A stretch of 64,000 nucleotides of DNA from Spirochaetia bacterium (GTDB lineage Bacteria > Spirochaetota > Spirochaetia > SZUA-6 > Bin103), in NCBI GenBank assembly GCA_965198005.1, contig CBDAOI010000004.1, forward strand, positions 2,304,001 to 2,368,000, given 5' to 3'. The notes beneath the pieces are model-generated. The model worked only from the letters and a program-made list of their open reading frames with translations, was not told the origin of the DNA and ran no database searches. Numbering within the stretch: position 1 is the first letter of the stretch; every line of letters begins with the position of its first letter. This document shows, piece by piece, positions 25,082-47,194 of this stretch. Made by a program: the position numbers and the translations under genes.

Positions 25082-25127
25082 TGGTGGGGATGACCAGCAG
25101 CACCCGCCTGATCAGATACGCACGCAC
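25082..25127 (-). pseudogene. 15-codon N-terminal stub of a DppB-type permease
   Basis: GGAGG RBS, then MRAYLIRRVLLVIPT, matching the paralog starts MRPYIIRRLLLVIPT and MKAYVIRRLLLIVPT; rest deleted. Confidence 0.75.
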
Positions 25128-25227
25128 GTCAGCTCACCTCCACACTCGGTTGCACAAGAAAACGGGGTGGCAGGTCGGCAGGTCGTCCCCGCCACCCCGC
25201 GTCCGTTGGACCGTGTGCCGGCCGGGG

Positions 25228-26569
25228 TCAGTACCCCATTTCCCGCTTCAGGTCCTGGTCGAGCCAGATCCGCACGAGAACCTCGTTGCCAATGTCCCCG
25301 ATGGTCCTCTCGCCGTTCCAGCCCTTGACCCAGGGGTTGGCCAGCTGGAAATTCGGCGCCTTGTGGCCGTAGACCTGGAAGTGCTGCCGCATGATGTAAT
25401 CGTCGAACTCTTTCATGATCGCCGGTGGACATCTCGTAGAGCCCGCGGGCACGGCGATCGACCCAGGCGCCGGTGTCCATGACCGTGATCTCCACCTCCA
25501 CGCCGATTTCCTTCCAGTAGCCGGCCACGATCTCGACCCATCCGAGGTCGATCACATCGCGGTGGTCGTAGGTGACCTTGAACCGCACCCCGGCCGCGCC
25601 GCGCGCGTAGCCGGCCTCGTCGAGCAAGCGCTCGGCGTCCTGCGGATTGTAGGAGTACTCCGCCTGCAGATCCGCGGGCCGCTCCTCGAACGGAGTGTGC
25701 ATCTCGCCGAGCGCGGCGCCGACCCAGCCCTGCACCGTCGGGTAGGCGTACCCGCCGAAGTAGCTCTCGTTGATGGCATCGCGGTCGATGGCCATGTTCA
25801 TGGCCTTGCGCACGCGGACATCGTCGAACGGCGGCCGGCGGATGTTCATGCCCGAAACCTGAAAGGCGCGATCATAGAACGGGAATGCCTGAATGTCGGG
25901 GTTGGTCTCCGGTGGCAGGATCCAGACGCCGACCTCGGTGAGTACGTGGTTTGGCAAATCCAGGCGCGGCTCGGTCAGCTTGAACTCGACCGTGTACCGG
26001 TCGGTGGCCTCGATGAACTCCCACGGAAAGTTGCGGAGGGCGTAGGTGTACTCCGGCTTCCAGTCGAGCAGGCCACCGATACGGCGGTAGGTCCAGGCGA
26101 CGTCTTCGGCGGTCAGCTCGCGCCCGTTGACCGGCGGCTTGTCGTGCCAGTAAACGCCCTGCCGGACCTTGACGATGAACGTCTGCGGGTCGGGATTCGA
26201 CCAGCTCTCTGCCAGCCACCCGGTGAGTATCCGGAGCGGTCTGTACCAAGAGGTAAAGTCCCACTCGTCTCGCGGCGTGGCCCAGTTGGCGTGCGCCAGC
26301 TTCTCATTAACCGTCTGGATCTGAAAGCCGGCCCAGTGTCCGCCGATCGACGGATCCTGGTCCAAGAGCTCGTTCTTGGATGCGATGGTGAGGGTGCCGC
26401 CGTACTCGGGCGCGGTCACCATCTTGCCGGTGGCCGGGTCGCGCACCATCTCTTTCTCCATCGCCGCGGCCGGCTCCTCTTCCCCGGCCGCGCTCGCCCA
26501 GATGCCGGTCGCGGCCAGGACCAAGACCAACGCAACCGCGAAGATCATTTTGATGTTTACAATGTGCAT
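25228..26569 (-). pseudogene. family 5 (peptide/nickel) SBP 1, internal in-frame deletion near 25905 and frameshift near 25420
   Basis: APEYGGTL, LAESW, WHDKPPVNGRELTAED, PPFDDVRVRKAM. ILPPE is joined directly to TNPDI, so more than 100 aa present in the paralogs are missing. The C-terminus IWLDQDLKREMGY is in another frame. Confidence 0.85.
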
Positions 26570-26704
26570 ACGTAACTCCGTATGTTGGTTTCTATTGAGA
26601 GTATTGCGGAGCGACTTGCCGCTCCCTGCCTACTCTCGCGCCCGCAACGCAGGCGGCCAGTCAGAGTCATATTTGTGACGCGCGCGGCGTGTGACTCACC
26701 GGGT

Positions 26705-26740
26705 TCACGCCGCGCGCGCGTGCGGTTCTTTGAGTATCAT
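26705..26740 (-). CDS. leader peptide uORF2 MILKEPHARAA
   Basis: AGGAGG 5 nt before the ATG; conserved in the copy at 46455-46490. Confidence 0.65.
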   Translation of the reverse strand: MILKEPHARAA

Positions 26741-27021
26741 TTGCACCTCCTCATTTGGGTTCTTGGGCCATAGGGTGGCCTGCCAGATGCCCGACGGCGC
26801 GCACCGCCATGCGGGGAGGTAAGTCGGCCGAGCAACGAATGTGATGGACCGGCAACGCCGGCGGTCGGTTCTGCGACGGTGAGTTGGGGCGCGGGATTCC
26901 AGGACCGTTGCGGTGGTCAGCGAAAGAACGTGGACTGAGCCGGCGACACACGCAACGGGCCGCTACCCCGGTGCTGAAGGCGAAGGCCCCCGCGGGGCGA
27001 TCAGCCCGAGCGGCTAGTGAT

Positions 27022-27141
27022 CTACAGGATGTATGAGAGAAGTGGGGGGGTACGGGGTACGATATGATGTACCGGCTGCGTCACTGTCAACCGGCCACTC
27101 CGGCCACTGCGTTGAGTGTCGTCATGGCGCTTCGTCGGCAT
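27022..27141 (-). CDS. putative uORF1 MPTKRHDDTQRSGRSGRLTVTQPV...
   Basis: Frame and motifs shared with the other leader copies; starts about 20 nt below the -10 box. Confidence 0.45.
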   Translation of the reverse strand: MPTKRHDDTQRSGRSGRLTVTQPVHHIVPRTPPLLSYIL

Positions 27142-27163
27142 CCGTTCAACCCCTGAATTCCTC

Positions 27164-27192
27164 ATCGTTCCACGCTCGCCTAAAGATGTCAA
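27164..27192 (-). promoter_or_regulatory. sigma70-like promoter TTGACA-N17-AACGAT
   Basis: Read from the sequence; equivalent position in five leader copies. Confidence 0.6.
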
Positions 27193-27277
27193 GCGCCGGC
27201 TCCGGCCGTCCCGGCCGTCCGGCCGGGGGCTCCGGGGGCAGACGGCCACGCCGGGCTTCGGGTATCCTACAGGCCCG

Positions 27278-28276
27278 ATGCACGATGAGAATTACAAGCG
27301 GATCTTTGCCTTCCCGCGCGTGATCGAAGATCTCCTGCGCGCCTTCATTCCCGGCGACTGGCTCGAGGAGGTCGACTTTGCCACCCTCGGGAAACTGTCG
27401 ACCGAGTACATAAGCGACGAGCTGCTCAAACGCCACGGCGACAACGTATGGCGGATGCGCTTGCGCAAGAACTGGCTGTATCTGTTGTTGCTGGTGGAGT
27501 TCCAATCGACCGACGATCCGTTGATGGCGTTGCGGATACTCACCTACACCGGGCTGCTGTACCAGGAGTTGGCGCGCAACGGCCAGCTCGACGCCGACGG
27601 CCGGCTGCCCGCGGTGCTGCCGCTGGTGCTGTACAACGGCGACGAGCCGTGGGTGTCGCCGCTGCAGATGGGTGAACTGATCGCGCCGGTGGGGCCGTCG
27701 CTGGCGCCATATCAACCGGAGCAGCGTTGCTTCGTGCTTGACGAGCGGCGCCTACAAGCGGACGATTTACCGAGCCGCAACCGGATGAGCGCGGTGATCG
27801 CGTTGGAGCAGAGCCGATCACCGCGCGACGTGGCGCGGGTGGCGGAGATGTTGGCAGCGTGGCTGCCGGACCTGCAGGTGCGGCGGGCGTTCGCGGACTG
27901 GATGCGGCAGATCGTGGAGCGGCTGGTGCCGAGCGGCGTGGAGTTGCCGCCGATACGGAAGTTGGAGGACGTGAGTATGACGTTGGTGGAACGAGCGGCC
28001 GAGTGGTCCAAGGAGTGGCTGAAGGAAGGCCTTGAGCAGGGGATCGAGCAGGGGATCGAGCAGGGGATCGAGCGCGAACGAGTGCTGCTGTGCCGAATGA
28101 CGACGGCGCGCTTCGGCGTGGCCACCGCCGAACGCTTGGCGGAGCTGTTGGCGCCCATCACCGACACGGAGCGTCTGGCCAACGTCGGCGATTGGCTGGT
28201 GCAGTGCGACACCGGCACCGACTTCCTCGCCCGCGTGGGCGCGGCGCCGGCCGGAGGGAACTCGGACAGATCCTGA
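27278..28276 (+). CDS. Rpn/YhgA-like recombination-promoting nuclease (putative transposase)
   Basis: HDENYKRIF, DNVWR, LLVEFQSTDDPLMALRI, LPLVLYNG, C-terminal (EQGI)n 12-bp repeats. Confidence 0.9.
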   Translation: MHDENYKRIFAFPRVIEDLLRAFIPGDWLEEVDFATLGKLSTEYISDELLKRHGDNVWRMRLRKNWLYLLLLVEFQSTDDPLMALRILTYTGLLYQELARNGQLDADGRLPAVLPLVLYNGDEPWVSPLQMGELIAPVGPSLAPYQPEQRCFVLDERRLQADDLPSRNRMSAVIALEQSRSPRDVARVAEMLAAWLPDLQVRRAFADWMRQIVERLVPSGVELPPIRKLEDVSMTLVERAAEWSKEWLKEGLEQGIEQGIEQGIERERVLLCRMTTARFGVATAERLAELLAPITDTERLANVGDWLVQCDTGTDFLARVGAAPAGGNSDRS

Positions 28277-28862: not shown

Positions 28863-28947
28863 ATACTAGCCGACGGCTGGGGTGGATGGCGTAGGTCCCC
28901 ATTCGCGGAGGAGCATAGCCGGCCGTGGTGAATCGAGAGGTGACGCG

Positions 28948-29802
28948 ATGAGATTGGAGGGCAAGGTGGCGCTGGTGAGCGCGGCGGGGCGAGGAATCGG
29001 TCGGGGCATCGTCCTGGCGTTGGCACGCGAGGGGGCCGACATCGCGCTCAACTCATTTAGTGATGAGTCGACCGCGGCGGTGGCGGCCGAGGTCGAGGCC
29101 CTCGGCAGGCGGGTGTTGGCTGTGTCTGGCGACATCACCGCACCGCAGCAGGTGACGGCGCTCGTCGATGGCGCGATCGAGACGCTGGGCGGCATCGACA
29201 TCCTGGTGAACAACGTCGGCGGTGGCGCCCAGGACGCCGTGGACCCAGCGCACGGCCGGCTGGCCGAGGTGGCTGCGGCCTGGGACGGGACCTACCGGCT
29301 CACCCTGCGTGCCCCGGTGCTCATGTCCGAAGCGCTGGCTCCACACTTCTAGGAGCGCAAGGCGGGTCGGATCGTCAACATCGGCTCCAACGCCGGCCGC
29401 TACACCGGCTCGCAGCGGTCGCTCGCCTACGTCTCCTCTCCACAGTACGCGGCCATGAAGACGGCAATCACCAGCTACTCCCAGACCTTGGCGCGGCGGC
29501 TCGGCCCACACGGGGTAACGGTCAACTGTGTGTGCCCGGGCATCGTGCTGACGGACGCCTGGCGCGGGACCTCACGCCGGGTCGTGAAGCAGCTCGAGGA
29601 GTATCGGCACCTTACGCCTGAGGAATGGTTCGCGGGCATCGCCGAGAACAAGTACCCCGATTTCCTGGCGCCGGTTCCCCTCGGCGAGCTGCCAACCATC
29701 GAAGACGTGGCGCAGATGGTGCTGTTCTTCACCGTGCCGGAGTCGCGGCATCTGACTGCGCAGGTGGTCGCGGTTGACAGTGGTCAGGTGATGACCCGCT
29801 GA
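28948..29802 (+). pseudogene. SDR family oxidoreductase with in-frame TAG at 29350-29352
   Basis: SAAGRGIG, LVNNVG, GRIVNIGS, YAAMK, NCVCPG all in one frame across the stop. Confidence 0.85.
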
Positions 29803-30660: not shown

Positions 30661-31417
30661 ATGATGGAAACCGACATCCGCACCGCAGCCGTGATCGGCG
30701 GCGGCGCCATGGGACACGGCATCGCCGAGGTGCTCGCGCGCCGCTGTGAGCGCGTGTGGCTGCACGACGCGGTGCCGCAGGTGATCGAGCTGGCCGGGCA
30801 ACGGATCGGCGCATCGATCGCGCGGCTGCGACGGCACGGCCTGATATCCGAAGAGACCGCCGCCCGCATCCCGGAGCGCATCCGGACCACACCCGATCTG
30901 GGCGAGGCGGCGGCCGGGGCGCAGCTCGTGATCGAGGCGGTCTCCGAGAACCTGCCGCTCAAGCAGGAGCTGTTCGGCGAGCTCGACCGCATCACCGGAG
31001 CCGATACGATCTTCGCCACCAACAGCTCGAGCATGCGCATCGCAGACGTGATGAGGCAGGTCGGGGCCGGCCGCCAGGAGCGCCTGGTGGGGTCGCACTT
31101 CTTCCTGCCGGCGCAGATCGTGCCGCTGGTGGAGGTCTCGCGCACGCCGGCCACCAGCGACGAGGTGTTCGAGCAGATCGTGTCCCTGTGGCAGGCCTGT
31201 GGGAAGGAACCGATTCGCGTGCAGCGAGACGTCAGCGGCTACGCGCCTCGACGCCGGTCGCCAGCACCTGCTCGATCTGGCCGCGGCCGGCCACCTCGGC
31301 CTCAAGACCGGTCGCGGGTTCCTGGACTGGGACGACAAGGACCCGGAGACGACGGTGGCCGAGGGTGATGAGGCGCTGGCGCGGCTGGTGGCGCTCCTCG
31401 GGCTGGGGGCCGGGTAG
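30661..31417 (+). pseudogene. 3-hydroxyacyl-CoA dehydrogenase family, C-terminal domain largely deleted
   Basis: GGGAMGHGIA, VIEAVSE, ATNSSS, HFFLPAQIVPLVE, then a jump to GHLGLKTGRGFLDW in another frame. Confidence 0.8.
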
Positions 31418-31429
31418 CCGGGTAGCGCG

Positions 31430-32025
31430 GGACTTGCCCGAGCGTTTTCTCGGCCTCTAACGCCGCTCGCAAGTCGTCTAGGGTGGTGACGTTGTAGGAC
31501 CGCACGCCGAAGCCGCGCGCTACCTGGGCGAAATCGATGTGGTGGTAGTCGGTGGAGACGTAGTTCTGGTCGTAGTAATCGCGCTGTACGTGTTTGATCC
31601 AGCCGAGGGTGTCGTTAGTGAAGATGAAGGTGAGGATCGGCAGCTGGGCGCGCGTCATCACTTCCATCTCTTGCAGCGAGTAGCCGAAGCCGCCGTCGCC
31701 GGCGAAGTGCAGAATGCGACCCGGGTTGTCTTGCGCCCGCCGCGCCAGTGCGACTCCGACGGCCGCTGGGCTGCCCCAGCCAAGCCCGGCGAGGCCGCGC
31801 TCCGGCGCCCGGCGGCTGCGAAGGTGAGGTAGCATGCGGCCCAGCCGGAGGCGAGGCTGGCATCGGCTACCGCAGGGGCGCGGTCGGCTCACGGGCGGAG
31901 TCGGTCATCTCCTGGTACCAGCGGACGCGGGCATCGGTGTAGCCGGCCAGGTCCCAGCCGGTGCCGGTTGCAGAGCTTCGCCGGCGGCCAACACGGCGTC
32001 GAGGCCCACGGCGGTGTCGGCGATG
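31430..32025 (-). pseudogene. thiamine-PP enzyme (acetolactate synthase-like) fragment
   Basis: GLGWGSPAAVG, GDGGF...FTNDTLGW TPP motif; N-terminal part missing. Confidence 0.75.
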
Positions 32026-32127
32026 GTCACCGCCAGCCGGTCACTGCGCTGGCTGTCATCATGGCGCTTCATCGGCATCCGTCGAACCGTGAGCTGGTAG
32101 TATGGGGCCCGGCCCAAGAAACGTCAA
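32025..32127 (-). repeat. 5' part of the SBP-leader family (promoter TTGACG-N17-CATACT plus uORF1 start MPMKRHDDSQRSDRLAVT)
   Basis: Close match to 46909-47010; truncated onto the TPP-enzyme fragment. Confidence 0.75.
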
Positions 32128-35823: not shown

Positions 35824-37345
35824 TCAGCCTCCCATCTCTTGCTTCAGATCACTATCAATCCAGATGCGGGCGAAGATGGCCGCTGCGCGAGCCAGTCCCA
35901 GTTCGACTTCGCCGTTATAACCTTTGATCCATGGCTGGGCTGCATTAAACAATGGAACTTTAGGACCCCATATGTACCACTGCTGCTCGATCATGTACAT
36001 ATCTGCCTCTCTAACCAGCCTCTTCTGCTCCTCAGGGGTAGTCGCGGTTTCGGCGGCTTCTACCTTGGCGTCCATCACAGGGTCCTGATGTCCATTGCGG
36101 TTCGCAGCATCTCTCGAGTGAATATGGACCAATAGGGGGAGGGGCGACGAGTCATATCCGAGATCCATAGAAATCATCCCTTCATAAGTACCTTCCGTCA
36201 TTAGCCCCGCCCACGGAGTTTCATCATGTACCTGAATCTCCACATCTACACCAATCGCTTTCCAGTATTCGACGGCTATTTCCTGATAGCCTACGTCGAA
36301 TCGCTGCAAGTGGTTCAGGACGGTCTTGAATCGAATGCCATCCGCGCCGCGCGGATACCCCGCCTCATCCAGCAGCTTCTCCGCCCCTTGCGGGTCATAC
36401 CGATAGCCTTGCTTGACCGCCTCGGGCCATTCTTCAAAGGGGACATAAAACCCCGTCAGACTATCCCCGATTCTCCCCTGGGGTTGCCACTTGGCAAAAC
36501 CCTTATAGTAGGTATTGTTGATGGTCTCCAGGTCAATGGCCATCTGCATGGCTTTGCGCACCCGGATGTCGTTGAAGAGCGACTGGTTGCGCAGGTTGAA
36601 ACCAACAGAGGTCTCCGAGCGGAAGTACCACGGGTACAACGTGATCTCGGGGTTGCTCCGTTGGAGGCTCTCTACCTGGCCGATATCCCCCAATTGAGTG
36701 TCGCCGGCTAAACCTGTGATATCATGCTTACCTGAGCGAAACGCCGCCAGCCATGTCGCTTGTTCGGGCATGATCACTCGCCTCAGCTGGTCAATATAGG
36801 GCAAGCGGTTCTGTGGGTATTTTTCGTCGGTGCCCCAGTAGTCCGGATTCTTGGTATAGGTCAGAGAGCTGCCCTTGACCCAGTCCGTCAGCATATAGGG
36901 CCCGGTGCCGACCAGGTTCCTCCAATCGTGCACGTTGCCATGCTGCTCGATCACCTCGGGGGGCATAATGAAATGAAACCAGTGGGAGACGATCGTCTCA
37001 AGCGCGTCGTTGCGTGGCGCCTTCAGCTTGAAAACAACCGTGGAATCGTCGATGGCCGTAATCGATTCCCAGGTCGCGGCATTCATCGGGTCGAAGGGGC
37101 TAGGTTCGGTGAAGCCGCTGCCCAGACCCGTATAGCGGTTAAAGTTATATTCTACATCCTGGGCGGTCAGCTCCCGACCGTTCATCGGCGGCTTATTATG
37201 CCAGCGAACGCCCGGGCGGATGTTGATAACGATCGTAGTGGCGTCAGGCGTTTCCCAGCTTTCCGCCAGATTCGGTCTCATGGCAGAAAACGGGACGTAC
37301 CTGCTTCCGAAGCCAAATTCATCCCTGTCTATTCCCCAGTTGCCG
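35824..37345 (-). pseudogene. family 5 SBP 2, 5'-truncated (no signal peptide)
   Basis: In-frame GNWGIDRDE upstream of the first ATG; LAESW, GTGPY, RLPYID, DIRVRKAMQMA; joined directly to the leader G-tract at 37360. Confidence 0.85.
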
Positions 37346-40383: not shown

Positions 40384-42173
40384 CTAGTACCCCATTTCTT
40401 TCTTCAGCGCACTATCGATCCAGAGGCGGGCAAACAGGGTATTCGATTCCACCCTGGACAAGGCCCCGTCCAGTTCACCGTTATAGCCGACGAGCCATGG
40501 CTGGGCCAAATAGAATGAAGGGGATTTTGGACCATATATCAGCCAGTGCCGCGACATCGCGTACCTATCTGCCTCGGCAATCAGCCGCTGCTGCTCCTCA
40601 GTCGTACGGGCTCCATTGACGGCGTCAACCCTGACATCCAGCTCAGGCCACTGGGATCCGCCGCGGTTCCACTGGTGATCCGTGTGATAATTGTTTGCCA
40701 TATAGACAGGGTTGAATTGGTTGGCCGCAATACCGCTGTACATGCCTTCCCCAGTACGCGAGAACATCCTCTCGTGATATTCGGCGTAGGTAAGAGCATC
40801 AATCTCGACCTCGACGCCAATTTCCCCCCAGTAGGCGACAGCTATTTCCGAATAGTCCAGGCTTGCCCAAGACCCGTAGTTCAGGGTGGTCTTGAATCTC
40901 GCACCGTCGGCGCCGCGCGGATAGCCAGCCTCGTCGAGCAGCTTTTCGGCAGCTTCCGGGTCATACCGGTAGTATTGCTTGACCTCTTCGTCCCACTCCT
41001 CGAAGGGGACGAAGAACCCGTTCACCCCTACCAGCCCGTGAGGTGTCGGATCTGCAAGTCCCTTCCAGTACGTGGCCGCGACGTTCTCGTTGTCCAGCCC
41101 CATCTGCATGGCGCGGCGCACGTTGATGTCGTTAAAGGGCGGCCTGCGATGGTCAGGAACAAAAGAAGACACCGACCGAAAAAAGACAGTGTGCGCCGTG
41201 ATCTCGGGGTTTGTCTTCCGGAGGCTGTCTATCGAGTCCAGAGAACTGGCCCCCGATCTGAAATCAAGCGTGCCTGAGCGCAGTGCTGCCAGAATCGATC
41301 CTTCCTCGGTCATAATCGCAATCTTCACCTCGTCGACGTAGGGCAGGCGGTTCTCGGGGTACTTTTCGTCATGGCCCCAGTAGTCGGGATTCTTGATATA
41401 GGTCACGCTGCTGTCCTCGACCACGTCCGTCAGCATGAAGGGGCCGGTGCCGACCAGGTTCCTCCAGTCCTGAAGGTCGCCATGCTGCTCGATGACCTCG
41501 GGCGGCAATATGAAAGCAGAGATCTCGACGAGCACAATCCGCATCGTATCGAGGTATGGCTCCTTCAGCTTCATTACAACCGTCGCATCGTCGGTGGCCG
41601 TTATCGATTCCCATGGCACGGCGATGAGATCGGCGGCGTTGGGTGCGGCGCTCGGGCCGGCGTCGGCGAAGCCGCCCATACCCAGCATGCGGTGGAAGTT
41701 GAATACTATGTCGTGGGCAGTGAGCTCCCGACCGTTCATCGGCGCCTTATCATGCCAGTGAACGCCCTTGCGAATGTGGAAGATATAGGTCGTGGTGTCA
41801 GGCTGTTCCCAGCTCTCCGCCAGCCGCCCTATCATGAGAGACGTGGGGAAGTAGAGCGTTTTCAGCTCCGATACGTCTCTATCTACTCCCCAGTTCACGA
41901 TACCGAGCTTCTCGGTGACTCCGCCTCCTGGGTTGGCCACATAGTTGAAATAGGGGTCATGCGTATTGGCTGCGGAACCGGGGCCCCCCAAAACGGTTAG
42001 TGTCCCGCGTACTCCGGCGCGGTCACCATCTTGCCGGTGGCCGGGTCGCGCACCATCTCTTTCTCCATCGCCGCGGCCGGCTCCTCTTCGGCGGCCGGGC
42101 TTGCCCACAGGCCGGTTGCGGTCAGTGCGAGACCACACAGGACGGCGAGTGAGGTGCGAACTACGAAATACAT
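40384..42173 (-). CDS. family 5 SBP 3, full length with a 1-nt frameshift near 42008
   Basis: ATG 42173 with AGGAG RBS gives MYFVVRTSLAVLCGLALTATGLWASPAAEEE...APEY; the rest is in the 40384 frame. Confidence 0.85.
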
Positions 42174-42863
42174 CAGATAACTCCTGTTGCTCGAGAGTAC
42201 TGATAATCGACTGCCGGCCCCTCGCCTACTCTCAAGCTATGCCCGCTTCAACGCCGGCGAGCACAAGCGAGGGCGACACCGTGGGTACCCAGGCGGCACG
42301 GCCGCTTGGGGACGAGTCCGTGAGCTAGCCATGGCTAGTCGTAGCCGGTCTTGGGTGCCATCCCATCCTCCTTTGACGTGCGCGCACCACCGGCCTCGGG
42401 ATCGCGCCGGGACCTGCGTCCCAGCGTCCACGCGGCTGGCGAGGCGAGTTGGATTGCCCGGCAACGCCGGGAGCGGAGTTGATGAACGGGTTGATGAGGC
42501 CTGGTGCGCCGGTCTCGGCGCTGAACGGACGCCCTGTAGGCGCCGGGTCGGTTAGCTGTGTTGGTGTTTCTCGGAGGTCCCGTGTACCAACGGTCCCGTG
42601 GGGGGGGGTACAGGGGGGGTAGGACGCGCCGGTTGCGTTGCCGCTAGGAGCTTGTCGGCTTCGCCGACGAGGTCCGAGCGTACCGGTGGGATGGGCCACC
42701 CGCTTCGCGGCCCTTCGGGGCGGCGCCTCGGGCGTCGGTCTGAGGCCACCAAGCGACGATGGGGCGCCAACCGGTGGCAGCGCTGAGTAGTGTCACTACG
42801 TGTCAGTTGCATCCTTTCAAACCCGTCGCGCTTACCATGGCACACCTGTGGCAAATACGTCAA
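42174..42863 (-). promoter_or_regulatory. SBP 5' leader, divergent copy (promoter TTGACG-N18-CATGGT, uORF1 42552-42812, AGGAGG-led uORF MAPKTGYD 42335-42361, GAGAGTA/TACTCTC stem)
   Basis: Shares the G-tract/CCGGTTGCGT block, the CGGTTAG block, the GATTGCCCGGCAACGCCGG block and the SBP-proximal stem. Confidence 0.6.
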
Positions 42864-43291
42864 TAGGGCGTGTAGGGCGTGGTGCCGTTTTGGTGCCGTG
42901 CCGGCGCGGCCGGCCCAGATCCGCGCCCCCCTTTCAGCAGTATCGCCGGCAGCCGCTGCAGTTGTTGCGAGCGAGGGTCCACCTCGAAACCGCCGGACTC
43001 CAGGGCGGTCACCCCAAGGAGCGGTTCCGCCTCCGCGTCTCCAAAGATGACCGTGCCGCCCACGGTCTTTCCCTCGAACTCGATCTGCGCAACCGTGGTG
43101 TCCATCGTGAGCGCCGTGCCGTCCGCGAGCACGTACTCATCATGAGACTTGGGCTCAAGACCAATCGCTTGCAGATGCCGGCGCGGCGCCAGCGAGTTGA
43201 AAGCGCCCGTATCCACCAGGAACCGTCCGGTCCAACTCTTCGCCGGTGCCGCGGGATTGCGGATCGTCACGTCCACGTACGTCGCTCCCAT
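42860..43291 (-). CDS. clan AA (retropepsin-like) aspartic protease
   Basis: [28 protein letters not shown]. Confidence 0.85.
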
Positions 43292-43409
43292 GGTTGTGCG
43301 ATTACCATAGTAGCGTAGGCGTGGCTGGTCAACCTGCACGTACGGCCGGCGCGATGCCGGTCGACGTGTGGGGCATGTGATTGCCGCGACCACCCTGCCG
43401 GTAAAGTCC

Positions 43410-43923
43410 TCAAGCGACGAGCCCGTGGGTGTCGAGGCTCTCGCACAGAGCACACGCGCGGTCCTTGTGCGCCGCCACCACGCCCGGGCGGTGATGCTCC
43501 GGGCGTCGCTCGATCCAGCCGAGCAACGCGAGAGCGCGCACGACGACCAACATCGGCACCAACGCCGCATCCTCGTCCGGCAAGGCTCGCACCCGCCGGT
43601 AGCCGCGCAGCAGCGACGCGAAGTTCAGGTCGAAGCGCTCGGCCGGATGCCCAGTGAGCACCACCGCCAGGTCGTACTGGTGCCAGCCGAAGCCGGAGTC
43701 GTCGAAGTCGATCACCGCGAGCCGATCGCCGTCGACCAGGACGTTGTCGAAGTGCAGGTCGGCGTGGATCAGGCTGTAGGTCCGCGCGTCGACGCCGTAG
43801 CGGTCGAGCACCGCGCGGATCGCGTCGCGGGTGCGCACGACCAGCCGGCGCTCCGCGCGCGACAGCAGCGGTGAGTCCCAGAACCGACCCCAGAACGGCG
43901 TCTCGCCGAAAAAGCCTGCGACG
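43410..43923 (-). pseudogene. 3' half duplicate of the phosphotransferase at 47396-48394
   Basis: Near-identical DNA to 47396-47909; LIHADLH, IDFDD. Confidence 0.85.
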
Positions 43924-43924
43924 C

Positions 43925-44286
43925 TGGCGCGCCGCGGCTTTGTCGCCCATCGCCCGCATCGCCGCCGGCGGCGGGCCGACGAACACGATGCCGGCGGCCG
44001 CGCACGCCTCGGCGAAGTCGGCATTCTCGGACAGAAAGCCGTACCCTGGGTGGATGGCGTCGGCCGCGGTTGCTCGCGCCGCCGCGATGATCGCCGGCAT
44101 GGAGAGGTAGCTCTCGGTCGCACGGGCCGGCCCGATGCGCACGCGCTCGTCGGCGCTGCGGGTGTGCAGCGCATCGCGGTCGGCGTCTGAATAGACCGCG
44201 ACCGTGCGCACGCCCAACTGCCGGCAGGTGCGAAAGATGCGCAGCGCGATCTCGCCGCGGTTGGCGACTAGGACCTTGCCGAACAT
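43925..44286 (-). pseudogene. biotin carboxylase N-terminal fragment
   Basis: [31 protein letters not shown], then truncated. Confidence 0.9.
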
Positions 44287-44718: not shown

Positions 44719-44885
44719 GAGGCATTCTCCTGGACACCGACATCGCCATCGACTACCTGCGTGGAGTCCAGGCAGCGGTCGATTTCGTCAAGCAGCATGA
44801 GAGGGAGATTTCGCTGTCGGCCGTGACGGTTGCCGAGCTCTTCGCAGGTGTGAGGGACGGCGACGAGACGGTCAAGCTGGAGGAC
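44715..44885 (+). pseudogene. vapC: VapC PIN toxin, 3'-truncated
   Basis: ILLDTDIAIDYLRG...SAVTVAELFAG, then fused to the truncated end of SBP 4. Confidence 0.8.
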
Positions 44886-44889
44886 TCTG

Positions 44890-46318
44890 ATCCTTTACCT
44901 GAGTGTTCCACGTCGGCCCGTCAGTAATCACCAACTCAACATCAACGCCAATCGCATCCCAGTAGGCGATAGATATTTCTCCATAGTCAGAAAACTGTGG
45001 AAAACTGTGAGACAATATGGTCTTAAATCTGATGCCGTCCGCGCCGCGCCTGTATCCGGCCTCATCAAGCAACGCTTCTGCCCCCTCCGGGTCATACCTG
45101 TAGTATTGCTTGATTTCTTCGGGCCAGGTTTCAAATGGCGTGCTCCACCCAATTTGATGTTCAGCTATTAACCCTTGAGGTTGCCAGGAAGCAAAACCCT
45201 TAAAGAAAGTTTCGCTAATTGTCTCAAGGTCCAGTGCCATCTGCATTGCTCGGCGCACTCTTATGTCGCTAAAGGGCGGCTCGGTTACGTTAAGGCTGAA
45301 GGCATAATTCGACCGTTGATAAAACGGCCACAACTCGAGGTCGGTTGTCTTCTGGAGGCTCTCAAAGTCGTCGAGAGAATTCATCGACCAATGGGTGCCC
45401 ATACCTCCAAAACCAACCTTGCCCGTGCGCAGCGCCGACAGACGTGTTGCTTCGTCTAATATAAAGAGGCCCTTTAACTCGTCAATATAGGGCAAGCGGT
45501 TCTCCGGGTATTTTTCGTCGTAGCCCCAGTAGTCAGGATTCTTTTTCCAGGTCATAGAGCTGCCGTCGATCCACTCAGTCAGCATATAGGGCCCGGTGCC
45601 GACCACGTTTCTCCAATCCGCAACGTCGCCGTGTTCCTTGATTACCTCGGGGGGGTAATATCCACGTCCAGGCGTCGTCGAGTATGATTTTCAGCGCACT
45701 GAGCATTGGCTGCTTCAGCTTAAAGACAACCGTCCAATCGTCGGTGGCTGTTATCGATTCGAATGTCACGTTGGGGATACTTCCAAAACGGGCGGGACGT
45801 TCGGTGAAGCCGCTGCCCAGAGTTGCGAGACGGTGCCAGTTATACTCTATGTCCTTGGCAGTTAGCTCCCGGCCGTTCATCGGTGCCTTATCATGCCAGT
45901 GAACGCCCTTGCGGATCTTGAACACATAAGTTGTGGCGTCGGGTTGCGACCAGCTTTCCGCCAGCTGCCCTATGAAGAAAGATTCAGGCACAACACCGCC
46001 GGATTTAATGTCATATACGTCCCGATCTATTCCCCAGTCCGCTTGGGCTAGCCTCTCATAAACGCCACTGACGAGGAACCCCGCGTGGTGACCAGTAATC
46101 GACGGGTCCGGTCCCTCGGACTCGGGGCCCCAGAGCAACATGAGTGTCCCGCCGTACTGCGGCGCGGTCACCATCTTGCCCGTGGTGGGGTCGAGCACCA
46201 TTTCCCTCTCGGCGGCGGCTGCCGACTCCTCTTCTGCGCCAGCGGCCCACAGGCCGGTGGCGGTCGGGGCCAGGACCAACGCAACCGCGAAGGTCATTCT
46301 AATGATTGCAATATTCAT
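44890..46318 (-). pseudogene. family 5 SBP 4, frameshift at a G-run near 45650 and 3'-truncated
   Basis: MNIAIIRMTFAVALV...APQYGGTL, LAESW, GTGPY, PPFSDIRVRRAM; stops about 100 aa short of the paralogs. Confidence 0.85.
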
Positions 46319-46454
46319 ACGCTTCTCCGTATGTAGATTTTTTGAGAGTATTGCGGAGCGACTTGGCGCAGCTCCCTGGCTCCTCTCGCGCCTGCCACGC
46401 AGGCGGCCAGTCAGAGTCGAGTGGGTGACACGCGCGGCGTGCGACTCATCGGGC

Positions 46455-46490
46455 TCACGCCGCGCGCGCGTAGGGTTCTTTGAGCAACAT
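46455..46490 (-). CDS. leader peptide uORF2 MLLKEPYARAA
   Basis: AGGAGG-N5-ATG; 9 of 11 aa identical to 26705-26740. Confidence 0.65.
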   Translation of the reverse strand: MLLKEPYARAA

Positions 46491-46847
46491 TTGCACCTCC
46501 TTTTTCTGTAGGTTGCGGCAATTGACAGTGAGGGAGCTGCGTCACAACGCCACCCGCGGCGGCGGTCGGCGCAGCAGCAAGTCTGATTGACCGGCGACGC
46601 CGGCGGTGGGTCTTGCCGGCAGTGAGTCGCGGCGCGGATCCGGCTCGGTCGCGGTCGACGATAACGGCGCGGGCGGTCCGCATGCCGGTTCGCCGATGGA
46701 CCGAGCCGGTGAGGAGCAACGCAGCCAGGCGGGATGCATTCGCCGCTCGAATGCAGGCGGAGTTTCGCCACGGGCTGCGAGCTACGGCGGTAGTGAAGGC
46801 GACGGTGGTGTGCGCGGGGTCGCGTACGCGGCGATCAGCCGGAGCGG

Positions 46848-46958
46848 TTAGTTGTTCGTCGGTTCGAAAAGTGTGTGTGTGGGGGGGGGGGTAGAATGCA
46901 CCGGTTGCGTCACCGCCAGCCGGCCACTGCGCTCACTGTCATCATGGCGTTTCATCAT
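46848..46958 (-). CDS. putative uORF1 MMKRHDDSERSGRLAVTQPVHSTPPPTHTLFEPTNN
   Basis: Hand translation; stop lies in the conserved CGGTTAG block, as in the 42552 copy. Confidence 0.5.
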   Translation of the reverse strand: MMKRHDDSERSGRLAVTQPVHSTPPPTHTLFEPTNN

Positions 46959-47194
46959 CGATCCGTTGAATCGTGGGTTCAAAGTATAGGGCCCGGCGCA
47001 AGAACGTCAACCGCGATTCTGGCCTCGTGCACCTGCGTGGCTGCCGCCTAGCCCGCTGCGCGACCGCCAGCCGGTGGCTGGGGTGGAGCGCGTCCGTACC
47101 CGTGAGTGCAAGCGGCGACCTAACCCGGTGCGCCAGCGCTAGCCGGCGGCTGGGCTGGCTAGTGTCAGTCGCCATACGCGCACGAGTGTAGCCG

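Follow-up and report, generated by a model that had tools for sequence, protein, structure and literature searches.

A conserved mini-gene in a structured RNA leader that probably lets ribosomes tune about eighty importer operons of a Spirochaetia bacterium

The leader and its mini-gene

The window analysed here is a stretch of 64,000 nucleotides from a sponge-type Spirochaetia bacterium (GCA_965198005.1, contig CBDAOI010000004.1, positions 2,304,001 to 2,368,000), and the element in question is a leader of roughly 170 nt that precedes a family-5 ATP-binding cassette (ABC) solute-binding protein gene. The leader carries a mini-gene of its own, an upstream open reading frame (uORF) that follows a Shine-Dalgarno (SD) sequence and has 36 nt in the copy described first, copy A (ATG ATA CTC AAA GAA CCG CAC GCG CGC GCG GCG TGA); across the copies the mini-gene has six to eleven codons. 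A second copy, copy B, has its ATG at 46490-46488 and its TGA at 46457-46455, and all features of both copies lie on the minus strand (Table 1). Leaders of this kind, each with its mini-gene, stand before about eighty operons of the genome and probably let ribosomes tune them.

An earlier note on this DNA had reported the uORFs MILKEPHARAA and MLLKEPYARAA with their AGGAGG-N5 sites, their codon differences (ATA>TTG, CAC>TAC and CCG>CCC), a G+C stem bearing the stop codon, a complementarity between the loop of this stem and a downstream strand, and a divergent leader with another uORF (AGGAGG-N5-ATG, MAPKTGYD, 42361-42335). All of these were found again in the sequence. The stem has 13 pairs in copy A and, in copy B, 11 Watson-Crick pairs together with a G.U and a C-G, while the loop strand GAGTCA (26697-26692) is complementary to TGACTC (26669-26664) in copy A and GAGTCG to CGACTC in copy B. 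The binding-protein gene behind copy A is split into three pieces in two frames and that behind copy B is also frameshifted, so that the two copies on which the description was based precede broken genes; a paralogue at 35824-37281 corresponds to Pfam SBP_bac_5.

Table 1. Features of the leaders, with positions in the window unless a contig handle is given.
Feature	Coordinates	Strand	Remarks
SD sequence AGGAGG of the leader uORF, copy A	26746..26751	-	spacer TGCAA to the ATG
Leader uORF, copy A, MILKEPHARAA, stop TGA	26705..26740	-	ATG 26740-26738, TGA 26707-26705
P1, 5' arm	26706..26718	-	codons 8-11 and first two bases of the stop
P1, 3' arm	26679..26691	-	pairs with 26718-26706, 13 pairs in copy A
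PK1 loop strand UGAGUCA, inside the P1 loop	26692..26698	-	core GAGUC invariant or nearly so
PK1 downstream strand UGACUCU (copy A)	26663..26669	-	core GACUC nearly invariant
PK2 strand CUGGC	26656..26660	-	two bases past PK1, in the same invariant linker
PK2 partner, in the 5' internal loop of P3	26626..26630	-	GGCAG in copy A (one mismatch); consensus GCCAG
P2 hairpin CGCCUGC-GUU-GCGGGCG	26639..26655	-	double changes at 5/7 pairs in other genomes
P3 hairpin GAGAGUA...UACUCUC, inner helix GGAGCG/CGCUCC	26597..26637	-	also in the second uORF class
P4 small hairpin CAUACG-GAGUUA-CGUAUG	26567..26584	-	encloses SD and AUG (26569) of the binding-protein gene
Family-5 ABC solute-binding protein gene after leader A	25112..26569	-	broken: internal deletion and frameshift
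Copy B: SD 46496-46501 and uORF MLLKEPYARAA 46455-46490	46455..46501	-	binding-protein gene behind it also frameshifted
Second-class leader uORF: SD 42367-42372, MAPKTGYD 42335-42361	42335..42372	-	
Identical leader pairs	C1:4919 = C4:1735514; C2:13078 = C4:693002; C2:7736 = C3:799074; C3:894900 = C4:2001939		

Copies of the leader and their gene context

The own genome (4.89 Mb in 4 contigs, 66% G+C, 90% complete) was searched in several ways. A genome-wide pattern search gave 66 matches to the exact pattern ATGATACTSAARGARCC against 0 for a reversed control, which is above chance. BLAST of the leader core returned 85 copies, 79 of them with the uORF motif, and a covariance model (R1), built from a seed alignment of 41 copies, gave 86 matches. 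A gene similar to SBP_bac_5 follows 76 of the 79 uORF-bearing copies in fixed orientation and at fixed distance, its start lying 130-200 nt past the uORF stop. The binding-protein ORF is intact (at least 450 codons) behind 67/80 copies, and same-strand permease genes are found downstream, DppB-like in 73/80 and DppC-like in 71/80. The operons are of the Dpp/Opp type of ABC importer, with the binding protein first and the two permeases after it.

SBP_bac_5 has at least 133 scored matches in this genome (226 candidates at first look), and the importers of Dpp/Opp type are expanded to an extreme degree, with about 230-240 tblastn pieces per permease type in 4.9 Mb. Across the 65 unique binding proteins encoded downstream of the leader, pairwise identity averages 48%, against 81% (nucleotide) for their leaders; even among the 1171 pairs with less than 50% binding-protein identity, leader identity still averages 80%. 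The leader and the block encoding the signal peptide are far more alike than the gene bodies.

A mobile element was considered as the source of the copies and rejected: the leader is fixed before SBP_bac_5 genes, and a gene for a YhgA-like transposase (Transposase_31) stands upstream in only 4/80 copies, copy A included, which argues against a mobile cassette. Four leader copies have a counterpart on another contig that matches them fully over 220 nt (Table 1), reflecting either recent segmental duplication or assembly redundancy.

Distribution

Of 41 related genomes, 6 contain the exact pattern; these 6 belong to a single genus, and the control gave 0 matches. The covariance model has matches in seven of ten congeners (43, 33, 64, 36, 5, 1 and 2, i.e., 184) and none in 13 genomes of the sister genus; across the order, with stricter filters, matches occur in 8/92 genomes and 1/27 genera, the 26 other genera having none. 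The total is roughly 270 copies across eight genomes. A scan of the genomes of 185,579 species for an SD sequence, a spacer of 4-8 nt and degenerate MILKEP codons gave 53 stretches, 38 of which are in three records named 'MAG: Spirochaetia bacterium' (MAG, metagenome-assembled genome). Among the remaining 15, the real leader was recognized only in a Spirochaetales MAG and in one contig binned as Tectimicrobiota, the other 13 being without P1 and looking like chance matches. The latter contig, of 6.5 kb and assigned to 'Candidatus Tectimicrobiota', has a full MILKEP leader at its end and probably comes from a spirochaete, having been mis-binned.

The element was not recovered from Rfam or from the papers searched. 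A search of the whole window against Rfam 15 at the gathering level gave 0 matches, and at E<=1 over 26540-27110 only symR was returned, on the opposite strand and with 21.4 bits against a gathering score of 61. A full-text literature search found 'MILKEP' in no paper, and a search on leader peptides and attenuation at genes for solute-binding proteins and ABC transporters returned no such leader among the matches listed.

Coding character of the uORF

Own-genome copies were found by BLAST across the whole leader and are, for this reason, not selected for the peptide. The start codon is retained in 79/80 of them (among the 79, ATG in 72, GTG in 3, TTG in 1 and CTG in 3, two of these CTG being actually ATG with the peptide MILKEPHARAA). 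A G-rich SD sequence is found 5-8 nt ahead of the start in nearly all of 76 unique copies, and the spacer between the two varies in both sequence and length (TGCAA, TGAAG, TTCGA, TGCAAA). In 75 unique copies the variants in codons 2-6 are distributed over the three codon positions as 5/4/50, e.g., CTC/CTG, AAA/AAG, GAA/GAG and CCG/CCC/CCT/CCA. With a tree derived only from flanking sequence, Fitch parsimony assigns 4/4/42 changes to these codons (binomial p=2e-13 vs one third), with 49 changes of codon state against 8 of amino-acid state. As codons 2-6 change almost only at third positions, the peptide MILKEP is under selection.

The remainder of the reading frame behaves differently. Codon 7 changes freely (16/2/13) and specifies His, Tyr, Trp, Glu or the stop UAG, whereas codons 8-11 change 7/17/10, mostly by C>U at second positions that keep G.U pairs, which is a non-coding pattern. 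Codons 8-12 make up the 5' arm of P1, a G+C stem of 12-13 bp, and are for this reason conserved as RNA. Judged by these substitutions, the ORF falls into three parts: a hexapeptide constrained as protein, a codon free to vary and a tail constrained as RNA. Its first 18 nt are A/U-rich in a genome of 66% G+C. Pausing at rare codons was rejected, since in the 65 binding-protein genes ATA accounts for 28% of Ile, AAA for 26% of Lys and GAA for 42% of Glu codons.

Predicted fold of the leader RNA

RNAalifold predicts P1, P2 and P3 on the seed alignment, while a global MAFFT alignment of 140 copies, in which the stems were misaligned by insertions, gave hardly any structure with RNAalifold. The structure was therefore counted on two model-based alignments, one with 98 distinct copies of other genomes and one with 71 of the own genome. 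Paired cells amount to 91.9% and 92.5%, respectively. Double changes are found at 24/51 pairs in the other genomes (10.9±1.9 in shuffles) and at 14 in the own genome (6.2±1.5 in shuffles), and 0/500 shuffles reach the observed value in either case; the nested helices are part of the model, so that their counts lean towards it. In the 71 own and the 98 other copies, 12/13 pairs of P1 are at least 93% paired; P1 itself hardly varies, showing one-sided G.U changes and few double changes, and double changes are seen in P1a, P2 and P3. The predicted fold energy of copy A is -69.4 kcal/mol (z=-2.65), and copy B has z=-1.52.

Both pseudoknot helices are absent from the alignment model. In PK1, the core GAGUC/GACUC pairs in 94-100% of the copies with letters at both places; these five pairs never vary and hence neither support nor contradict the pairing. 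Information comes from the ends of the helix. Over the 169 distinct copies, the A-U end pair is A-U in 124, A.C in 23, A.G in 7, G-C in 4 and G.U in 3, so that a loop G faces C in 4/7 copies and a loop A faces C in 23/154 (Fisher p=0.016, relatedness uncorrected), and the other end is U-A in 83, U.U in 52, U.G in 13 and C-G in 3 (p=0.023, relatedness uncorrected). The earlier note had taken the change between copies A and B as a compensatory double change. The G-C of copy B is real, but with 4 G-C against 23 A.C such pairs are rare and lend the pseudoknot weak support; PK1 is plausible as a pairing predicted from the sequence.

A second pairing of the linker, CUGGC with GCCAG in the P3 internal loop (PK2), is 96-99% paired and has 3 double changes in other genomes. 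The P1 loop UGAGUCA and the P3 loop GCCAG are both complementary to one linker, UGACUCA-GA-CUGGC, and the leader can consequently fold as a double pseudoknot, in which PK1 and PK2 would tie P1 to P2/P3 just upstream of the SD sequence and AUG of the binding-protein gene. This AUG is paired in local folds of P4 in 48/65 copies, with a mean local energy of -4.95 kcal/mol vs -2.65 kcal/mol in shuffles; the P4 stem differs between classes (CAUACG/CGUAUG, CAUAGG/CCUAUG). Pairing of the downstream PK1 strand with the SD sequence of the binding-protein gene was dropped as a general mechanism, as it is found only in the GGAGUUA class.

Proposed mechanism and alternative explanations

What is observed is the anatomy of the sequence, the number of copies, the genes around them, the patterns of substitution and the conservation of the stems; from these we infer translation of the uORF, a pause at Pro6 and a regulatory output. 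The reading preferred here, held with roughly even confidence, is that the 36-nt ORF encodes a translated leader peptide whose ribosome would open the structured 5' leader and so set the output of the importer operon. P1 begins 22 nt past the uORF AUG, and a ribosome usually covers about 15 nt downstream of the first base in its P site. With P1 placed in this way, an initiating ribosome would load freely, without touching the stem, and would have to open it later, once Pro6 enters the P site and most of the 5' arm comes to lie inside the ribosome. A ribosome at the UGA would cover the whole 5' arm and, in copies with a short loop such as copy A, the knot strand too. The dwell time at codons 6-12 would then determine how long the fold is open, and a slow reaction following Pro, or a slow release at either Pro-UAG or UGA, would lengthen it. 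Whether by read-through, by mRNA lifetime or by access to the start site, opening of the fold might in this way set the yield of the operon. The genome has a Rho gene, and Rho-dependent control, by analogy with tna or mgtA, is possible.

Some properties of the sequences around P1 can be added. The two bases past P1 are TT in 82/125 copies, and the tract begins with G in 21/125; a weak association links codon 7 with this flank, UAG going with TT in 13/16 and a G-start flank following a C-ending codon in 20/22. The leader core (26595-26751) is covered by contigs from 4/4 metatranscriptome runs, which come from four studies; two of the runs are labelled as sponge metagenome and one as marine metagenome, and the fourth bears a code for a label. 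Such libraries may contain DNA, and contigs do not reveal where transcripts end; beyond 26751 the contigs pass into the upstream sequence of other leader classes. A promoter and terminator scan of 26300-27400 found no promoter-like site and two terminator-like sites, both on the plus strand.

Several observations weigh against a ribosome-opened leader peptide. On the minus strand, the scan of 26300-27400 gave no terminator-like site, and folds masked by a ribosome footprint with AUG, Pro6 or Ala11 in the P site yielded no reproducible alternative helix or antiterminator. At 130-200 nt past the uORF stop, the binding-protein start lies beyond the reach of simple coupling. A leader shared in identical form by about 80 operons is unable to signal the particular substrate of each transporter, and the high identity between paralogues could partly reflect gene conversion. 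The ORF ends at codon 7 (UAG) in 13 own copies (MILKEP or MTLKEP followed by the stop), and as an intact gene follows 9/12 of those examined, full melting of P1 cannot be essential; in other genomes the UGA has been lost from some copies, whose ORF extends to 14-20 codons. Finally, about 105 copies found with the covariance model in other genomes depart from the exact pattern; the 32 of them that were inspected, a sample biased towards changed copies, start with ATG in 17, GTG in 9 and TTG in 1, the start codon being absent in 5 (GTA in three, GTC, AGG) with the fold and in-frame LKEP letters kept. Copies that break the frame and keep the flanks, which the earlier note had said would speak against its proposal, do exist in this sense among the other genomes, while the own genome keeps the start in nearly every copy. 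The same note had likened the element to the ribosome-opened leaders trpL, tnaC and ermCL; a coding-type uORF whose stop lies in a stable stem agrees with this, but regulatory codons, a terminator and an alternative helix were not found.

Among the alternatives, an RNA-only element is unlikely: the double-pseudoknot fold would bind a protein or small ligand, in the manner of a riboswitch or of a leader bound by protein, and the ORF would be incidental or would merely bring a ribosome that resets the fold. Unpaired or tertiary segments (the linker UGACUCAGACUGGC, GCAA, the loop CAAU) are conserved as much as the stems, the fold is kept in the 5/32 model-found copies that lack a start codon, the P2-P3 module also occurs in leaders of the second class, which lack P1, and the ORF can end at codon 7, as it does in the 13 own copies. 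A non-coding stretch is, however, not expected to change by third positions (4/4/42) or to keep an SD sequence at a variable spacer, and no usable Rfam match was obtained at gathering level or at E<=1, apart from the chance match on the wrong strand. Binding of CsrA at P4 was considered separately and is unsupported, since no CsrA gene was found in the 90%-complete genome and only 3/65 local folds combine an unpaired GGA in the loop with a paired AUG. Should the fold nevertheless bind a ligand or protein, it would be a candidate for a new class of structured RNA.

It is quite unlikely that the leader acts as a constitutive 5' stabiliser or enhancer, in which the mini-ORF and the G+C clamp would park ribosomes and the hairpins protect the mRNA, with no sensing involved. 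The same leader stands before about 80 operons, which accords more readily with a general than with a substrate-specific function; the SD sequence is strong, the first 18 nt are A/U-rich, and neither a terminator nor an alternative helix was found. A loading pad, on the other hand, needs no conservation of a peptide at the amino-acid level, nor a second class of leader with a conserved peptide of its own, and the RNA-library contigs extend at least 20-55 nt 5' of the SD sequence (loose ends at 26751), which indicates that the RNA does not begin with the uORF. A feature of the DNA alone, with the heptamers TGAGTCA/TGACTCA as operator half-sites or with a block kept by gene conversion and no function as RNA, is very improbable: both heptamers are near-palindromic (TGA-N-TCA) with invariant cores some 25-35 bp apart, and the leader and signal-peptide block is much more alike than the gene bodies, but both PK1 end pairs associate as RNA pairing predicts (at the uncorrected p values given above), P1a, P2 and P3 show double changes, gene conversion leaves change at third positions only unexplained, and the rarity of the upstream transposase gene gives no sign of a mobile cassette.

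Comparison with known leader systems

The likeness of the proposed leader peptide to tnaC, ermCL and trpL is a reasonable analogy. Like leaders of the trpL type, the uORF has its own SD sequence and start codon (79/80 own copies, with substitutions of the coding type); like the arrest leaders tnaC, secM, ermCL, mgtL and speFL, it is conserved at the amino-acid level, 42/50 changes in codons 2-6 being at third positions; and like H-type pseudoknots, the RNA has a hairpin loop complementary to a downstream single strand (GAGUC/GACUC).

In trpL, hisL and leuL, as here, the leader ORF has its stop within or next to the first arm of a stem, and the position of the ribosome would select the fold. 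Unlike in these leaders, no terminator with a U tract was recognized in copy A, and neither a run of cognate codons nor a 2:3 antiterminator was found; MILKEPHARAA is made of nine different residues, with no regulatory codon run, and only Ala repeats, under the constraint of the stem.

The tnaC leader of the E. coli tna operon has 24 residues with key residues of its own, senses free tryptophan and hides a rut site by the stop. Shared properties would be a short translated leader ORF, a peptide whose sequence matters and a decisive ribosome position at the end of the ORF, and the MILKEP-UAG variants resemble tnaC in having Pro as the last residue before the stop. In contrast, tnaC is without a G+C stem or pseudoknot and occurs once per genome, and no rut-like tract was identified after the MILKEP uORF.

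The drug-inducible leaders ermCL, cat-86 and cmlA have mini-ORFs of 5-19 codons with a strong SD sequence, in which an early stall opens the adjacent downstream hairpin. Their peptide lengths match the short forms of 6-8 codons found here, but their hairpin hides the SD sequence of the next gene, whereas P1 does not pair with the start 130-200 nt further on, and the class of gene differs; we know of no antibiotic link for the MILKEP leader. In H-type pseudoknots of the frameshifting type the loop also pairs with a downstream strand and the structure stands a few nucleotides ahead of the ribosome; here, in contrast, there is no slippery heptamer, the ORF ends inside the stem and a second linker pairing is made to P3.

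To our knowledge, ribosome-sensing leader peptides have been found in a handful of single operons and not at a scale of about 80, and tnaC, secM, mgtL and speFL have each been informative on the ribosome tunnel and on coupling. The MILKEP leader provides natural replication, with about 80 copies in one genome and about 270 in eight, which separates protein-kept, RNA-kept and free letters, and its minimal motif is short enough for cell-free testing. For sponge symbionts, it would mean that most of a very large family-5 uptake repertoire shares one control region.

A looser likeness is that to MgtL, the leader peptide of mgtA. MgtL, too, is a very short peptide with an acidic-Pro motif near the N-terminus (EPDP in MgtL, KEP here), and completion of leader translation decides the conformation of the leader RNA and hence transcription of a transporter gene (PMC11282234). 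In the same text, the MgtL effect needs repeated acidic residues, di-acidic motifs alone being insufficient, and mgtA output combines Rho-dependent termination with a Mg2+ riboswitch (PMC11282234). MILKEP has a single Glu.

Related leader classes and upstream modules

The divergent leader of the window belongs to a second class. Nine own-genome copies with AGGAGG-N5-7-ATG encode M(A/Q/T/P)PKTGYD or MKHPTGYD followed by a stop; they use GGC, GGT, GGA and GGG for Gly, with TAG or TAA as stop. A pattern for KTGYD and the stop has 8 matches in the own genome and 4 and 3 in two congeners, with 0 in the control. These leaders precede other SBP_bac_5 paralogues and lack P1, while sharing the P2-P3 module and the hairpin at the SD sequence. 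A possible third type of uORF, M(A/T)(R/S)VLPNNRR(S/P)T(L/S), is found upstream of three binding-protein genes of the own genome outside the window. Over 160 binding-protein loci, MILKEP-type uORFs number about 75, PKTGYD-type about 14 and the possible third type 3. That related leaders carry different peptides, each of them conserved, is an argument for the importance of the peptide sequence.

A bolder extension, which we regard as doubtful, would have a regulon of arrest peptides of 6-13 residues (MILKEP, MxPKTGYD, perhaps xxVLPNNRRxTx) govern well over 100 importer operons and sense a cellular or host signal. If true, this would amount to a new family of arrest leaders with an unusually short arrest motif, on an undescribed RNA platform in which the arrested ribosome pries open a double-pseudoknot switch.

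The region of about 350 nt 5' of the uORF (26752-27100, minus strand) is a mosaic of conserved modules in combinations that differ among copies. Directly before the SD sequence of the uORF stands a small class-specific hairpin, namely GGCACCCUGUGCC, GCCGGUUUUUGCCGGC or CUAGAUCUAG. Homopolymer tracts occur in the upstream modules, with C7 after GTACCCCGTA at about 27040-27060 (minus strand) and G9-10 and G7 at 42590-42625 (plus strand); phase variation and sequencing error are both possible.

Neighbouring genes

The minus-strand binding-protein genes after leader A, the second-class leader and leader B (25112-26569, 40384-42174 and 44872-46321) are all frameshifted or truncated. Other fragments nearby are a split short-chain dehydrogenase gene (28882-29802), an N-terminal piece of a biotin carboxylase (43267-44286) and a C-terminal piece of a thiamine pyrophosphate (TPP) enzyme (31302-31892), and such a fragment-rich neighbourhood points either to a decaying region or to assembly errors. 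A 52-nt repeat (family D18) occurs at 27100-27151, 32037-32088, 42771-42822 and 46920-46971. It contains the start of the gene for the YhgA-like transposase (Transposase_31; 27116-28276), and three of its four copies seem to keep just this start piece.

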